Below, piece after piece: positions 20,275 to 54,098 of a stretch of DNA of 64,000 nt. Position 1 is the stretch's first letter, and each line of letters begins with the position of its first letter. This DNA is from Dictyostelium discoideum (Eukaryota), in assembly GCA_000004695.1 (NCBI GenBank), contig CM000153.2:1824001-1888000 (forward strand), written 5' to 3'. The notes below the pieces were generated by a model. That model saw only the letters and a list, made by a program, of their open reading frames with translations. It searched no databases and had not been told where the DNA came from. A program made the position numbers and the translations under genes.

Positions 20275-21881
<1,607 letters not shown>

Positions 21882-21965: not shown

Positions 21966-22094
<129 letters not shown>

Positions 22095-22273
22095 CAATAA
22101 TATTATTATTTTTTCTTTTAAAGTTTTTAATTTTAATTTTAATTTTAAATTAAAATTAATTAATAATATTTTATTAAAGAAATAAATAATTTTACAAAGG
22201 TTTAAATTTAAATTTTTTATTATTTTAATATTACTTATTTATTTTATTTTATTTTATTATACTATTTTATTTT

Positions 22274-22999
22274 TTAATTATCATTATTATCAAAATTATG
22301 ACGACGATGATGACTATGATGGGTTGATGGTTTATACATATAGAGAGCAACCAATAAAAAGGTTATCATGAATATAATCAATAGAATAGTTTGATTTTCT
22401 AAAAAAAAAAAAAAAAAAAAGGAATATAGGTTAATAAATAATTTAATTTTTTTTTTAAAAATAAAATAAAATTAAAAATTAAAAAAACTTACTTGATTTC
22501 TTTTTTAAATTTTTTAATTTTGATTCATAGGTAATTAATTTTAATTTCATTTCATCCATTTGTTTTGAAAGTTCTTGAGTTGCACCAATTGTTTCCATTA
22601 CTAAAGCTTCATTTTTAATTACTAAAAGATTTTCAATTTCTTGGCCATTTACATTCTTATTACCAATGGTACGTACTGCATTTGGTAAAATTCTTTGAAG
22701 ATCTTGGGCGATAACACCTCTATCACAATTATCTAAATATGGATCCCTACCATTCATATGAGTCCATTGTGGATTATATTTATAGTCGTAAAGTTTCATT
22801 CTATTTACATTGTCAAGATTTGATTTTGAGTCGATCGATTTCAAATCATATTTTATTCTTAAATCTGATGGATGATAAACACCTTCAGATGCATAGATTG
22901 TACCTTGAACTGAAAGTGCATATGCTGGATTCTCTACATTAATACCAACTTTACCATTATATACAATTGATTTTTCTGTGTCACCTGAATTCCAATGAC

Positions 23000-23033
<34 letters not shown>

Positions 23034-23242
23034 TTGATTATTATGTTGATTATTAATATTATGATGATTATTATTATTATTATGTTGATTATTATTGTTA
23101 TGTTGATTATTATTATTATTATTTATATTATTATTAAAACAATTTATTCTACCATTTAATAAACTACTACTTGTTAACATATTACTATTATTATTATTTA
23201 TATTACCTAAACTATTATTATTACTATTATTATTATTATTTA

Positions 23243-23320
<78 letters not shown>

Positions 23321-24115
23321 GATTTTGAGTTAAACGTAAAATATTTGTTTGACCTTGACTAGTTAATTGTGATAAAGGACGTGGTGAAGTTGGTGAATGA
23401 CCAGGTGATACTATATTCATTGTTGAAAAATCTATATTTGATATAGTTGGACCAAAACAATTCATATTATTACTACCACCACCATTGTTACTACTTGTAC
23501 CAGCATAATCAGGGGTATGAACAGGTGATAGATCACCAGGTGGTGTTACTTGAGTTGCTGTACGAACAATGAGAGCAGGTGAAACGTAACTTACGATACA
23601 ATATTCTTGACCCATACAACGACCATACAATGATACAACCAATTGATTGAATTCTTGATGTGGATTTGGTTGACCATGTCTTCTGGCATTGTTAAGTGTT
23701 GCCTTTCTAAAATGTAATCTTTGTATACTAACCAATGAACCGAATTGAATTGCCACTGGTTTTGGTGCATGTTCACCTTGTTTCTCACGTTTTGAATTGG
23801 TTTGGAATAATTCCACCTCACTCTCTTGTTGTGACATATCAGCACGATTCTTTATACCTTTAATGGTAAGAGTTAAACCATTGATTGGTGTTTTCACACC
23901 ACTAATTAACATATAGGATGGTGTTTGAGTTGGATCGACTGATGATGAACTATTTGACAATGTAACTCCATTATGTCCATATTGTGTCTCTTGAAAAAGT
24001 TTTGGATAAACTGCTGTAATATCCAATTGAAAATGATTTCTTCTACAATAAATCCATTGTCCACCAATATATGAAAAACCTTTTGATGCCATAATATTTA
24101 AAAGTGGTACTGGCC

Positions 24116-24175
<60 letters not shown>

Positions 24176-25159
24176 ATAAAATGAGTTAATTATATATGTA
24201 TAAAAAAATAAAAAACATTAAAAAAAGATAAATAATTAATAACTTACATTTCATCACCATTTGTATTAAAAGTAGTATACCATGGTTCAGATTTATAATC
24301 GGTCCAAGTAAAAGGTGGATTTTCATTATATTGTGTCATTGGTGAAGGTGGATCAGAATTTTCATTCTCTGATCCAATCATTAAATAGTTATCAGTTGGT
24401 AAATGTGGTGATTGAATTGGTGAATTAGTTGGTGAAAGATTTGGTGATGGATTTGGTGATATACTACGTGGTGTATAACCTGATTGAGTATTTGTAATTG
24501 AAATTTGAGGTATTATACCTGGATATAATGATGATGATGATAATTGACTTGGTGTATTATTTGCATTAATTGTTAATCCATTATTTGTAGTTGTAGTTGT
24601 AGTTGTTTGAAGATGATTATGATTATTATTATTATTATTATTATTATAATTATTGTTATTATTTATATTATTATTATTTATATTATTATTATTGTTGTTG
24701 TTGTTATTATTATTATTATTTATATTATTATTACTATTGTTATTATTTATATTATTATTACTATTGTTATTATTATTTATATTATTATTATTATTGTTAT
24801 TATTATTAACTTGACTTGAATTTAAAGAAAAAGAAGGACTATTTACAGAACTATTAAATTGAGCTATTTGTTGTTGTTGATCTTGTAATTGTTGTTGAAG
24901 CATTAAAAAACTACTATCTAAACCACCATTACTACCAACCAATGAATTTGGAGAATAAGGGATCTCTGAATATGTACCGTCTTCATTCTTAATCTTTCTC
25001 TTTTTTAAATTTGAATCATCAGCTGATAATGGTGTAAATGTTGAGAATGAATTTGATCCTTGTATATTGATTGGTAAAGATGCTGATTGTTGGAGCATTG
25101 TTCCAAATCCGCCATTACTAATACCCAATAATTGATTATTTGAACCATTCATTGGTTGC

Positions 25160-25204
<45 letters not shown>

Positions 25205-25299
25205 GGGCTATGTAAAATACCACCCGATGAACCTAGATTCATTTGGTGTTGTTGTTGTTGTTGTTGTTGTTGCTGTTGCTGTTGGTTATACCCATCCAT
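22274..25299 (-). CDS. mrfA: MrfA-like (myelin-regulatory-factor family) membrane-tethered transcription factor: Gln/Asn-rich N-terminus, NDT80/PhoG-type DNA-binding domain, peptidase S74 intramolecular-chaperone autoprocessing (ICA) domain, C-terminal transmembrane helix
   Basis: Three exons re-join three ORF-track pieces. Exon 1 is 24248..25299 (MDGYNQQQQ…, AAAAATG context; phase 2, donor GTAAGT). A 133-nt intron containing (AAT)n precedes exon 2 at 22493..24114, which begins M-PVPLLNIMASKGFSYIGGQWIYCRRNHFQLDITAVY… (NDT80-type core) and continues to …SDLRIKYDLKSIDSKSNLDNVNRMKLYDYKYNPQW…ETIGATQELSKQMDEMKLKL (S74/ICA signature); phase 1, donor A|GTAAGT. A 94-nt intron precedes exon 3 at 22274..22398 (K-NQTILLIIFMITFLLVALYMYKPSTHHSHHRRHNFDNNDN*), which carries the transmembrane helix. 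The symbol is assigned from the domain architecture only; I could not run a search to confirm it. Confidence 0.7.
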
Positions 25300-25404: not shown

Positions 25405-25442
<38 letters not shown>

Positions 25443-25584
25443 CTTGAGATTTTTTTTTTTTTTTTCCAAGAGATAAATGTTAATACAAGTACTCTATATT
25501 TAGCTAAATTTTGTCTTTTAATTAATTGTTTTTGTTGTTAGTATTTAATTTTTTTTTTTTTTTGTGTTATTGGGTTTGTTGTGG

Positions 25585-25652
<68 letters not shown>

Positions 25653-25658
25653 CCCCCC

Positions 25659-25731
<73 letters not shown>

Positions 25732-25956
25732 AGTATTAAAATTACCAAATAACTGTATTATTTCAAAATTAATATTGTAAAATAGTGATTGTGTTGAAAA
25801 AAAAAAAAAAAAAGTAATAACAATTAAAAATAGGATGTATTTTTATTTTTATTTTTTATTTTTTTTTTTTTTTATTTTTTTTTTTTTTATTTTTTTTTTT
25901 TTTTATTTTTCTATTGGTGTATGTGAGTGGAATCTGGTATATCAAAGATTTTGAAA

Positions 25957-27675: not shown

Positions 27676-30468
27676 ATGAAATCCTCAAATGGTGTCGGTT
27701 GTACCGATTCTGTAAGTGTGTCTAATCTATTCAATTAATATAAATCTATAACTATTTCTAACTCTTATTTTATATATTTTTTTTATACATTTATTTTATA
27801 CATTTATTTTCGTATATCATAAATTTTATTAATTTAGATACAAGGATATTTATTTAAAAAAGGAAATTCATCTCTATTATCTTCATCATCAACATTATGG
27901 AAGAAGAGATGGTTTTCTTTAGAAAATGGTAGTACAACATTAAAATATTTTAAAAATTCAAGCGATGAATCACCAAAAGGTTCAATTAATATTCAATTAA
28001 TTGAATCAATTGATATTTTAACAACAACTACCACCACCACCACAACCACCACTACATTTGGAAATAAAGATAATACTAATAACAACAACAACAACAACAA
28101 CAACAATAATAATAGTAAATATTATTTCGATTTAAAAATTAAATCAAGAGTTTATCATTTATATTCTGAAACTGAAAGAGAAAGAGATTATTGGAATGTA
28201 AATTTAAATTTATCAATTTTAAAATCAAAAGAACCCTCACCCTCACTCTCACCACAATCACAAGTAAGACCAAGATCATACACTTTACCATCACCAACAC
28301 CAACAATTGTATTAGCAGAACCATCACCATCACCATCACCAACACCACTTCCACCACTACCAATACCACCAAATAATAAAACTAAACCTCCTCTTCCGCC
28401 AAAACCAATTTCACAACAACAACAACAGCCTGTACAACAACAACAACACCAACAACAACAACAACAACACCCAACAACAAATACTAATACCAATGGTAAT
28501 AGTAATAATAATAATGTAATTTTAAATAAAAAACAACAACAACAACAACAACAACCTGTAAAACAAAAAGAAATTGAAAATGAAGAAAATTTCGAATATG
28601 AAGATGATGATATTAGTTTATGTGGAGCAAAAAGAAAAGATTTTATAAAGAATCATTCTAGTGGATATATTACAAGTATGGTAGGAGTTACAAGATCAAA
28701 GATATGGTGTGGAGATTCTCAAGGTAATATTTGCACTTTCACATTGAGTAGAAATGGAAGTGGTGCTAATGGAATAACGGATAAAGTTAAGAAAGGATCA
28801 CAATGGAAAGAACATACTCTTATGGTAACCTCATTGGTTTATGTACCATCTCAAAAATTAGTTTACAGTTCATCATTAGATGGTAAAATTTGTGCTTGGG
28901 ATAGAACTGATTATAGTTTACTATTCTCTCATTCAAGTAAATTCCCAATTTATGATATGTTATTTAGTAAAAATGATTTATTAGTTTATTGTGGTGGTAT
29001 TTCATCATCACAACAACAACAACAACAACAACAACAAAATCAAAATCTACAAAATCAAAATCAAAATTTATCATTATTTGATACAGTTACAAAAGAAGAG
29101 ACAGAAATACCATTTCAATCATTTTTACCAAATTTATATAACAATGGTAATAGTGGGAATAAAAAAAGAAAATTTATAAAAATGGTAAAATTTGATGAAA
29201 AAATTATAATTTGTACAGATAGATGTGAAATTATAGTTTGGAGTCCATGGGATAATGAAATTTGTAAATATGTTAAAATTAATAATTCATATGATATTAC
29301 TGCAATGAATGTTGTTGGTGAGAATCTATGGATATGTACAACATCAGATACGAATGGTAATATATTTTCAACAACGAATCCGTGTTTGGTGATAGTGTTA
29401 TCAATTAAAACAGCATTGAAAAGGGTTAAAAGTTTTGAGTGTAGACATCCAATATCGCAATTTACATTGGTCAATGGTTACGTTTGGGCAATCACTCGTG
29501 ATTACATAACAGTTTATGAACAGAATACAGCTCAATTAGCCTATGAAACAATTATACTTAAAGAAGATATGAACTTTAAATTATTATATAATTTTAATAC
29601 TGTTTGGGTTGGTGGTACTTGGTTATTTAGATTTCAAATATTTAATAATTGGATTAGAGATAATTTAGAATATACAACTAACTCATCATCATCACCGGAT
29701 AAATCAGCAGCATCATCATCAGCAATTTCAATTAATATTCAACCAATTTCAGATTATTCAGATTTTGATAATGTTTTAAATGTTTTAGAATTAATTAAAG
29801 AGAGATTACAATATGATCATTGTAATCAACTTTATGATATTCTATTGGGTATTTGTGAGAATGATCAATTGAATTTAACAGATTTTAAAATATTAACATC
29901 AAAAAGTTTTAGATGGTTTGGTAGAAATCAATGTTCTTCAGTTATGCGTGAGTCAATTGTATCTGATAATAATAGAGTTTATAGAATTTCAAGAGTTTTA
30001 TCAAACTATTTACAACAATCAAATATTAAAGACTATTATATAAATATTAGAGAAAGTAGTAATAATATTACAATTAATGGTAGTGGTAGTGGTAATGGTA
30101 GTATTAATAGTAGTAATGGTAGTATAAATAATAGTGGTGGTAGTAATAGTAGTGGTTATAATAGTAATGTCATATTCATTTATGAAACATTAAAAACTGT
30201 TGAATATTTAGTTTCAAATTTTGATAAATTTTCAAAACAATTTCAAATTCAACAACAATTCATTGAAACTATTATTAAATTTACAACTCTATCATTACCT
30301 TCAAATAGATTAATCGTTTCAATTTCATTAATAATTTTATATCATTTATTAAATTCAAATGGTAATAATTTATTAAATATTTCATCCTCATCATCATCAC
30401 CCTCATCATCACCAAATCTATCAATAAATGATGGTTTAATAACTACTACTCCAACTTCAACTAATAAT

Positions 30469-30511
<43 letters not shown>

Positions 30512-31620
30512 ATAATTCAAGTTCAAGTGTAACAAAAAAAATTAAAGAAAATTTTAAAGTTAATAAAAATAAAGATAAAGATAAAGAAAGTAAAGGAAAT
30601 AAAGAAATTAATAACAATAGTAAAGATAATATAAAAGAGAATACTATAAAAGATATTGGTGGTAATAGTTTATATAATAATTTAAAAGATAAAGTAAAGT
30701 TATATCTATCAGTATTCTTTGATCAATCAATTGATGATAAAACTAAAATATCAATAATTAATGTTCTTTCAAGATTTCCAACAGAATTAAAAGAACAATT
30801 TAAAAAAGAGCTTTATTTAAATTCAACTTTTCAATTATTAAATCAAGGTATATCATTGGTTTGTAATGATTTAATTATAATCATGAATCAAATTTTAATT
30901 GATTCACCAAAAATTAAAGATCAAATTATAAAATATGTACCAAATTTATTAAATTTATTAGATCAAAAACAACAACAACAACCAATTAATGATAGAATTA
31001 GAATTTTTCAAATTATGTCAAATCCAACATTTATTCAAAGATCATATAATAATAATAGTATTGGTAATAATAATAATGATAATAAAAAATTAAAGAATAG
31101 AAAAGTTATAATTTCAAGTAATTTTAAATCACCAATTGAAAGTATTTTATTCACTATAAATTCAATTTTACATTCATTAAAGAGTACATCATTTAGGGGT
31201 TTAAAAATTACGATTTTAGATATAATTGTACCAAAAGAATTTAATCAAGATTTATTATCATCAATTAATGGTTCGATAATAAATTTAAATTTCATTTTAC
31301 CAAATCAAAGCTTTGTTTCAACAATTAAATTTAAATTTAATCCAAAGGATTTAGCAATTAAAGTGGCTTTTCAATTGGGTGTATCGGTTGGTGAGACCAC
31401 AATTTCAAATTTCTCAATCACTGGTGATCTTCAATTAGGTTTCACTCTAGGTACTGCTAAACCTGAATATATCTCTTTCTTGGAGGATCCAATCATTAAC
31501 TTTGATTTCGATTCAACTGGTGTTATCAATTTAATTGATAAATTTGTTAAACCAATCTTAAAAAAATCAATTAGAAAGAGATTAGTTCATCCAAATAGAT
31601 TTTATTTACCAAGTTCTTAA
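27676..31620 (+). CDS. Large (~1270 aa) PH-domain protein with proline-rich linker, WD40-like repeat region and long low-complexity C-terminal region
   Basis: Exon 1 is 27676..27711 (AAAAATG; MKSSNGVGCTDS), with donor GTAAGT at 27712. A 126-nt intron ends TTTAG at 27837. Exon 2 is 27838..31620, open the whole way (the ORF track starts only at the first Met, 28678). The PH-domain pattern is GYLFKKGNS…WKKRWFSLENGSTTLKYFKNSSDESPKGSINI…YYFDLKIKSRVYHLYSETERERDYWNVNLNLSI. WD-like segments include VTSLVYVPSQKLVYSSSLDGKICAWDRTDYSL. Confidence 0.65.
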
Positions 31621-52302: not shown

Positions 52303-54098
52303 ATGATAATTTTTAAAAATTTATTAAAATTATTAATAATTTTATTAACAATAAAATTATATTTTTGTATTGAAATTAAAAGAGAAGAACATTTAACAAT
52401 TTTAAATGAATTAAATGAAAATAGTGATGTGATTCAATATTCAATTTTACCAGGTAATAATGAAGAATATGAAATTGTTAAAGGTATTCAAGAAGATGCA
52501 ATAGTTTATGGATATTATATGTCAAATGTTGAAGTCAATGGTTGGGCTTATTTATCATTAGTATCAAATGATAAATACAATGATTCAACACAGTCAAGAG
52601 CATTTGGTTATTTAGAAGGTTATTTAACAAAAGATTTAATTTGGAATTCAAAAGTGAATTATTATAAAAATGCATTCAACTCTTCAGAAATTCCAAATAA
52701 ACTTGATGATTGGTTAACTGAGAATATTGAAAGTATTCACACATTCATTGTAAATAATAGAAAAAGTCGATATTGGAATCAGATTACATTGGTTATGGAC
52801 CAGATTAACGGCATGCTCGATGGGTACAATGAGGCAAACACGAATTCCAGCGAGACGTTATCATTGCATGATTTTTTTGTGTTGAATATGTTTGGCGATT
52901 TATTCGATTTAATGCCTGCTTTAAATTTGGATAAAGAGTATAAATATTTCCAAAAGGATTTAAACGATATTCAAGACTGGTTTAAAAGATCCCAACATTG
53001 TTCTGCATTGATTAAAGTGTCAAGCGACTACTCTGAATTATATTCCGGCCATACTACATGGAGTGGGTATTATACAATGTTGAGAATATTCAAGAGTTAT
53101 AACCAACAATTCTCATCAGATGTTTCAGGTACACTTTCGAAAAGAAATATTTTCAGTAGTTATCCTGGTGCTTTAATTAGTGTTGATGATTTCTATTTAT
53201 TGGGTGATACTAGAATGGTTGTAATTGAAACCACAAACTCTCTAGTCACCAATGACCTCTACCATTTAATTAGACCAACTACTGTTTTATCTTGGATGAG
53301 AGTCATAGTTTCAAATAGAATGAGTACAAATGGTAAAGAATGGTGTGAAAATTTCCAACGTTATAATTCTGGTACTTATAATAATCAATGGATGATTGTA
53401 AGTTATAATTTATTCGTCCCATATAATGAATTAAAAGATGGTGCGCTTTATGTTTTAGAACAAATTCCAGGTTATATTGAATTGTAATTATTTATTATTG
53501 TTTTTATTTTTTTTTTTTAAATTTCTTTTTAAAAATTATATATTAATTTTTTATTTTTTTTTGAAAAAGTTCTGATCAAACTCAAGCATTAAGACAAGGT
53601 TGGTGGAATTCATATAATATACCATTTTATGAAACAATTTATGATGCATCGGGTTATAATAATTATACTGCTAATAATTATAGTGATAGTACAATTTATT
53701 ATATGTCTTATCAAACTTGTCCAAGAGCTGAAATATTTAGAAATTTCGCAGGTTATGTTGAATCACTTGAAGATTTCCAATCATTATTAAGATATAATGA
53801 TTTTGAATATGATCCACTTTCACATAAACTTCCATTCTATGCCATAGCATCACGTTACGACCTTTCAAAAAAGAATCCTTCTCCATTTGGTGCAACTGAT
53901 ACAAAAGTAACTTGTAACTCTATGATTGATCAAAATACAATTGTCGCAATTAGTGGTCCAACTACATCAAATGGTCAGCCAATATTTGAATGGAATTCAA
54001 AAATTGATTTTATGGAGTCAACTTCACATTTAGGTTGCCCTGAAAAATATAATTTCCCATGGGTATCTTTCTCAGATACAACTTTTAGAAATCTTTAA
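52303..54098 (+). CDS. Phospholipase B-like (PLBD/LAMA family) secreted protein, two exons
   Basis: Signal-anchor start MIIFKNLLKLLIILLTIKLYFC. Exon 1 is 52303..53483 (…YNNQWMIVSYNLFVPYNELKDGALYVLEQIPGYIE, phase 2; donor TT|GTAATT). An 86-nt intron precedes exon 2 at 53570..54098 (F-SDQTQALRQGWWNSYNIPFYETIYDASGY…CPRAEIFRNFAGYVESLEDFQSLLRYNDFEYDPLS…GPTTSNGQPIFEWNS…). The NQWMIV, GYWNSYNIPF and CPRAEIFRR-like blocks are characteristic of PLB-like proteins. About 569 aa. Confidence 0.75.

Follow-up and report, generated by a model that had tools for sequence, protein, structure and literature searches.

A three-exon gene, very probably Dictyostelium discoideum mrfA, encoding an ER-tethered, self-cleaving transcription factor of the MYRF class

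The minus-strand gene at positions 22274–25299 of the window (the whole 64,000-nucleotide stretch of DNA that was analysed) is, with a probability of roughly 97%, mrfA of Dictyostelium discoideum (AX4-type). Its three exons encode a 932-residue protein that is tethered to the endoplasmic reticulum (ER), cleaves itself by means of a Ser767/Lys772 dyad and enters the nucleus in a regulated manner. Senoo et al. (2013, J Cell Sci 126:5247; PMC3828593) had already characterized D. discoideum MrfA and its mechanism. The present analysis contributes the gene model, the domain assignments, the dyad, the transmembrane (TM) helix and the identification with mrfA. All of this has been in print since 2012–2013, so that the locus adds nothing new. 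Reportedly, a paper on MrfA by Senoo et al. in Int J Dev Biol 56:325 (2012) preceded the 2013 study. mrfA is of interest as the amoebozoan prototype for MYRF-class proteins, membrane-tethered transcription factors that are freed by a phage-derived self-cleaving domain and that are relevant to myelination and to human MYRF-linked disorders; in addition, the three-exon gene was correctly rebuilt from raw sequence alone despite its long poly-N/poly-Q tracts.

A plain list of open reading frames (ORFs) breaks this gene into ORFs of 351 and 537 amino acids, the third exon being too short to appear in it. The sequence-only reading had anticipated this splitting and had joined three ORF fragments through two GTAAGT introns into one gene. 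The joined exons indeed form an intact frame, a spliced coding sequence of 2799 nt with no internal stops that is translated into 932 residues, and the gene can be laid out exactly as follows.

25299–25297, minus strand: ATG start codon, with its A at 25299, in the context AAAAATG
25299–24248, minus strand: exon 1, 1052 nt, codons 1–350 and two nucleotides of codon 351; it contains the ATG, stretches of poly-Q, one of poly-N and the outermost N-terminal part of the DNA-binding domain
24247–24115, minus strand: intron 1, 133 nt, GTAAGT...AG, 6% GC, acceptor AG at 24116–24115
24114–22493, minus strand: exon 2, 1622 nt; it contains the NDT80 core, a poly-N/His linker, the β-helical stalk, the intramolecular chaperone auto-cleavage (ICA) domain and a coiled coil
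22492–22399, minus strand: intron 2, 94 nt, GTAAGT...AG, 7% GC, with a long T-run leading into the acceptor AG at 22400–22399
22398–22274, minus strand: exon 3, 125 nt; it contains the TM helix, a 19-residue His-rich tail and the TAA
22276–22274, minus strand: TAA stop codon, last base at 22274

The two introns interrupt codons 351 (AT/G, Met) and 892 (A/AA, Lys). Intron 1 allows just three further in-frame GT/AG combinations, giving proteins of 921, 927 and 917 residues; these were rejected since they either lack GTAAGT or move the serine away from position 767. A perfect 3-nt microsatellite (24116–24174) runs through part of this intron and extends into its acceptor. The window as a whole has a GC content of about 22% and carries long AAT/CAA repeat tracts, as is usual in dictyostelid genomes. 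ORFs of 40–70 residues on the plus strand of the locus (poly-I, poly-Y and poly-L) were dismissed as artefacts arising from wrong-strand translation of these repeats.

The distinct 351-residue and 537-residue ORFs of the mechanical list, together with the AAT/CAA repeat that makes up much of the locus, might be taken to mean that the fragments are separate genes, or ORF noise in AT-rich repeats, and that the spliced model is an artefact. The probability of this is negligible. Homology to the DNA-binding domain (DBD) of MYRF covers residues 327–538, so that the alignment passes unbroken over codon 351, where exons 1 and 2 join. Both junctions lie within ungapped, collinear alignments with orthologues from three other dictyostelids, namely Polysphondylium violaceum (P0001), a EukProt dictyostelid (P0002) and Cavenderia fasciculata (P0003): at the exon 1/2 junction NTNGDEM/PVPLLNIMASKGF pairs with the orthologous NTNGEEMPTPQLQIIASKGF, and at the exon 2/3 junction LKNLKKKS/KNQTILLIIF pairs with INSLEQKKTKKCTLLTIIL. 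Exon 3 on its own would amount to a short peptide. The complete published ORF was obtained from cDNA by amplification between a primer in exon 1 and another in exon 3, and its product is 104 kDa in size (PMC3828593), which places exons 1 and 3 on one mRNA and contradicts three separate genes. The reading as a single spliced gene is therefore retained.

The identification with mrfA rests in the first place on the oligonucleotides published for that gene, which map to the window as follows.

25273–25299, minus strand: published 5' ORF primer, exact match, at the ATG
22277–22302, plus strand: published 3' ORF primer, exact match, adjoining the stop codon
22858–22880, minus strand: published S767A primer, mismatched solely in the engineered codon (TCA to gct)
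22836–22865, minus strand: published K772A primer, mismatched solely in the engineered codon (AAA to gca)

Each of the four primers has one match in the window and none in 100 shuffles. The published properties of the protein agree as well. Senoo et al. (2013) assigned the dyad to S767 and K772, identified the peptide DLRIKYDLK by LC-MS/MS and reported a 104-kDa precursor, cleavage fragments of approximately 85 and 19 kDa and a ΔTM construct from which the last 38 codons (4.6 kDa) are dropped. In the spliced model SDLRIKYDLK starts at residue 767 and places a lysine at 772. The calculated masses of precursor and fragments come to 104.3, 84.8 and 19.5 kDa, with 4.62 kDa contributed by the last 38 residues. 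The residue numbering equals that of published MrfA through two long, length-variable poly-N/Q tracts. No difference from D. discoideum MrfA was thus detected in a comparison that covered primers, numbering, peptide, masses and the TM deletion, both where it lies and how large it is; the model may depart slightly from the deposited mrfA model, for example in a repeat tract downstream of residue 772. The sequence-only reading had described the protein as MrfA-like. Its architecture is that of MrfA, but mere likeness understates the case: primers, numbering and masses point to MrfA itself.

There is only a very small chance that the locus belongs to a sister species, as an orthologue of MrfA, or represents a paralogue, rather than being the characterized D. 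discoideum gene. Two observations could be read in this way. An identical protein was not recovered, the exact 932-residue sequence having no entry in a collection of 15 billion proteins, and dictyostelids possess a second group of MRF paralogues (P0004–P0007; approximately 40% identity). Word-indexed searches, performed both with the full-length protein and after removal of low-complexity sequence, found dictyostelid and metazoan homologues with identities of at most 78%, and neither search returned a MrfA entry from D. discoideum or D. purpureum. An exhaustive search of representatives gave a best identity of 72%, and the D. discoideum MrfA entry was absent there too; the family comprises 284 clusters at E ≤ 1e-10 among 1.84 billion representatives. 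Against a different species or a paralogue stand the exact matches of 26–27-mers at both ends of the ORF and the shared numbering through the variable tracts. The neighbouring exon at 52303–53484 is 100% identical over 393 residues to PlbD of strain AX4 (Q54PS7), compared with 97% for two other D. discoideum isolates and 87–96% for D. citrinum, D. dimigraforme and D. cf. discoideum; with a single isolate standing for the last of these, the range is 87–93%. The same look-up that lacked the 932-residue protein matched this exon to the AX4 cluster, and the collection therefore does include AX4 proteins. The protein also groups with the MrfA-type orthologues, apart from the second paralogue group. 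A tblastn search with both paralogue types matched the mrfA locus alone, with no second MRF copy in the window. Identity with AX4-type mrfA is thus the reading on which the following description is based.

The upstream conserved domain of the protein is predicted to bind DNA.

23553–24059, minus strand: NDT80/PhoG-type DNA-binding domain, residues 370–538 (Pfam PF05224)

In a Pfam search with the 932-residue protein, PF05224 (NDT80_PhoG) was matched with an E-value of 3.5e-33 and 115.8 bits, compared with a cut-off of 27. The sequence PVPLLNIMASKGFSYIGGQWIYCRRNHFQ, from which this core had been recognized in the sequence-only reading, is present and begins at residue 352, directly past the codon at the exon 1/2 junction. 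A sequence search of the PDB matched the region to the MYRF DBD structures 5yhu, 5zhu and 5h5p with E-values between 1e-17 and 2e-15, and this homology begins earlier than the Pfam domain, at residue 327 in exon 1 (position 24321 of the window). Judged by these matches, the protein has the NDT80/PhoG-type DNA-binding domain that is required of the MYRF/MRF family.

Downstream of a long linker, the remainder of exon 2 corresponds to the autoproteolytic part of the protein.

22521–22997, minus strand: predicted β-helical stalk, S74/ICA auto-cleavage domain and putative C-terminal helix, residues 724–882 (by comparison with PDB 7dc3)
22866–22868, minus strand: Ser767 codon TCA, nucleophile and cleavage site, the only codon altered by the S767A primer
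22851–22853, minus strand: Lys772 codon AAA, general base of the dyad, altered by the K772A primer and aligned with the Lys of DLRAK in 7dc3

The closest solved structure is the ICA domain of MYRF with its stalk (PDB code 7dc3), which aligns over 159 residues with an E-value of 2.5e-26; by this alignment residues 724–766 would form a stalk directly upstream of the ICA domain, and the match runs on to residue 882, through the putative C-terminal helix. The S74 segment picked out in the sequence-only reading, SDLRIKYDLKSIDS, begins at residue 767, where PF13884 (Peptidase_S74) matches residues 767–832 with an E-value of 8.8e-12 and 45.6 bits (cut-off 22). Of the Pfam families expected for such a protein, PF05224 and PF13884 were therefore found above their cut-offs; PF13887 (now MYRF_ICA, formerly MRF_C1) was not, scoring 19.7 bits over residues 848–875 against a cut-off of 24.1. 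The segment HP-S767-DLRI-K772 has HP(A)DLRAK as its counterpart in the 7dc3 chain. Among the aligned dictyostelid homologues the Ser-x4-Lys dyad does not vary, and the residue preceding it is a proline in all except P0004, which has a threonine. On the strength of these alignments, the protein possesses both an S74/ICA domain downstream of the DBD and a proline-preceded Ser-x4-Lys dyad, as the MYRF/MRF family demands.

The last exon was expected to supply a hydrophobic anchor of 19 residues, and such a segment is present.

22334–22390, minus strand: predicted TM helix TILLIIFMITFLLVALYMY, residues 895–913, the hydropathy maximum of the protein

This stretch of 19 residues has a mean Kyte–Doolittle value of 2.55, the highest of any window in the protein, is preceded by a basic patch and occurs at the same place in all of the homologues compared. 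The prediction draws on hydropathy and conservation together with published fractionation, and with it the protein shows, at the level of sequence, the one TM helix C-terminal to the ICA domain that is characteristic of the family. The final 38 residues (4.62 kDa) begin precisely at the first residue of the helix and leave just 19 residues beyond it, which amounts to a tail-anchored type of layout.

Retention of intron 2 in some transcripts would remove this anchor. The resulting isoform, soluble and 895 residues long with the end ...KKKSSKFF, would lack the TM helix and bypass the ER; the frame stays open for just four codons into the intron before a stop, and the published ΔTM form is still cleaved and functional (PMC3828593). 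We consider such an isoform highly improbable, as the intron begins with a consensus GTAAGT donor and closes with a long poly-T tract followed by an AG acceptor, and the TM helix is kept in all dictyostelid homologues. The membrane-anchored, 932-residue form is accordingly the product discussed below.

The architecture had been proposed to be that of MYRF, and the domain order of the spliced protein bears this out. In common with metazoan MYRF (7dc3, 5yhu, 5zhu, 5h5p), MrfA combines an NDT80-type DBD, a stalk, an ICA domain with a Pro-Ser...Lys arrangement, a coiled coil and a single TM helix; S767 and K772 of MrfA have their counterparts in S587 and K592 of MYRF and in S911 and K916 of K1F endoNF. 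The comparison with Dictyostelium MrfA and metazoan MYRF that had been suggested at the outset thus gave agreement on both sides, with MrfA in primers and numbering and with MYRF in 7dc3 and the DBD structures. There are also differences. The N-terminus of MrfA is rich in poly-Q and poly-N, whereas that of metazoan MYRF is Pro-rich. Unlike metazoan MYRF, MrfA has a linker of approximately 185 residues between the DBD and the stalk, consisting mostly of poly-N/His, a feature that has been remarked on previously (PMC8326128). Beyond the TM helix MrfA has 19 residues and lacks MYRF_C2, compared with 739 residues in a fly homologue; a Pfam search of the 932-residue protein gave no match to this luminal domain up to an E-value of 0.1, and the short C-terminus without a C2 domain was already noted by the MrfA authors (PMC3828593).

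Phage tailspikes and endosialidases resemble MrfA in their S74 domain, in the Ser-x4-Lys dyad and in self-cleavage directly N-terminal to the serine. The residue before the serine is a proline in MrfA and a threonine in the phage endosialidase, and in contrast to a phage tailspike MrfA is eukaryotic, contains introns and releases a transcription factor. Membership of the phage group was accordingly rejected for this locus, with its spliceosomal-type introns, 22% GC eukaryotic genome and NDT80 fusion. Yeast Ndt80 and fungal PhoG share the NDT80_PhoG DNA-binding fold with MrfA. To our knowledge, Ndt80 has no ICA domain, no TM helix and no proteolytic activation.

In the mechanism best supported for this gene, the single C-terminal helix (residues 895–913) anchors the 104-kDa precursor in the membrane of the ER, and most of the protein faces the cytosol. 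The module formed by the stalk and the ICA domain (about residues 724–882) would gather the chains together, and the Ser767/Lys772 dyad then cuts the bond just before Ser767 without any external protease. The freed 85-kDa N-terminal fragment bears the NDT80-type DNA-binding domain, and a 19-kDa stub remains bound to the membrane. Cleavage is constitutive and the regulated step is the entry of the freed fragment into the nucleus in prestalk-A cells, leading to activation of ecmA.

Much of this scheme has been established experimentally for MrfA. The precursor enters the ER via its C-terminal TM helix and is constitutively self-cleaved just before S767 by the Ser-Lys dyad; S767A and K772A mutants are uncleaved, are retained in the ER and do not enter the nucleus, and the ΔTM form undergoes cleavage nonetheless (PMC3828593). 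[quoted passage not shown] Self-cleavage and nuclear release, as put forward in the sequence-only reading, are hence on record for mrfA; trimerization, the remaining element of that MYRF-style scheme, we infer by analogy with the MYRF and phage homologues, in which case assembly through the ICA coiled coil would be the trigger for cleavage.

Two features of the protein, neither of which is discussed in Senoo et al. (2013; PMC3828593), are the tail-anchored layout described above and a basic island amid the low-complexity N-terminus.

24946–25011, minus strand: conserved basic island NLKKRKIKNEDGTYSEIPYSPN, residues 97–118

The MrfA-type orthologues P0001, P0002 and P0003 share the island, whereas it is not conserved in the second group of paralogues; NLKKRKIKNEDGTYSEIPYSPN is a candidate nuclear-localization or regulatory element. 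We tentatively suggest that it may act as a regulated nuclear-localization switch gating the entry of the cleaved fragment, and that the TM helix may be tail-anchored and inserted post-translationally; this combined proposal is possible rather than likely. If true, the island would account for the developmental gating of the fragment's entry into the nucleus, and insertion of MrfA into the ER would be post-translational, unlike that of metazoan MYRF with its long luminal domain. Within the island, the core KKRK(I/V)KNEDG(T/S)(Y/F)(S/T)E (residues 99–112) is the sole conserved element of the low-complexity N-terminus among the MrfA-type orthologues.

Comparison of MrfA with its orthologues from Polysphondylium violaceum, Cavenderia fasciculata and a further dictyostelid (EukProt) revealed a conserved island, NLKKRKIKNEDGTYSEIPYSPN, amid an otherwise low-complexity N-terminus.

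Conserved N-terminal island of MrfA (orthologue comparison)
24946-25011, minus strand: NLKKRKIKNEDGTYSEIPYSPN, MrfA residues 97-118

The island is common to MrfA-type orthologues only and is a candidate nuclear localization signal (NLS) or regulatory site. Dictyostelids also possess a second group of MRF paralogues (P0004, P0005, P0006 and P0007, all from dictyostelids other than D. discoideum) with about 40% identity to MrfA. In contrast to MrfA, these proteins lack the KKRKxKNEDG island, carry approximately 16 extra residues in the coiled coil preceding the C-terminal transmembrane helix and have longer, Ser/Thr-rich tails of 49-124 residues after this helix. Both types occur in C. fasciculata and in P. 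violaceum, with a single protein of each type per species, and a tblastn search of the 64 kb window with both paralogue types found no gene of the second type.

Downstream of mrfA lies a gene for a glycoside hydrolase family 9 enzyme (cellulase), represented by three ORF fragments matching PF00759.

Cellulase gene and its fragments
20275-21881, plus strand: glycoside hydrolase family 9 (cellulase) gene, three ORF fragments matching PF00759
20275-21390, plus strand: fragment 1, PF00759 profile positions 1-324
21433-21711, plus strand: fragment 2, PF00759 profile positions 326-397
21744-21881, plus strand: fragment 3, PF00759 profile positions 408-444

Since the fragments cover consecutive parts of the profile, they belong to one gene with two short introns. 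This gene and mrfA are convergent, with approximately 390 bp between their stop codons, and most of the short intergenic gap at their 3' ends is taken up by a near-perfect (TTA)n microsatellite (21971-22110; ∼47 copies, 97% matches). A second, perfect 3-nucleotide microsatellite (24116-24174, ∼20 copies) is located in intron 1 of mrfA, where it leads directly into the 3' splice acceptor; its coding-strand unit is AAT, which also encodes the poly-N tracts.

Upstream of the mrfA start codon are a T-run of about 60 nucleotides (25406-25465) and an A-run of about 141 nucleotides (25592-25732), in which a C7 block interrupts the adenines. Beyond the 5' end of mrfA, the nearest long ORF is divergent from this gene.

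Nearest long ORF upstream of mrfA
28678-31620, plus strand: ORF of 980 amino acids, divergent from mrfA

The ∼3.4 kb between mrfA and this ORF are extremely AT-rich and constitute a putative promoter. Elsewhere in the window, the plus-strand ORF at 52303-53487 represents the first exon of plbD, as its product matches phospholipase B-like protein D (PlbD) from D. discoideum AX4 (Q54PS7, 569 amino acids) with 100% identity over residues 1-393.
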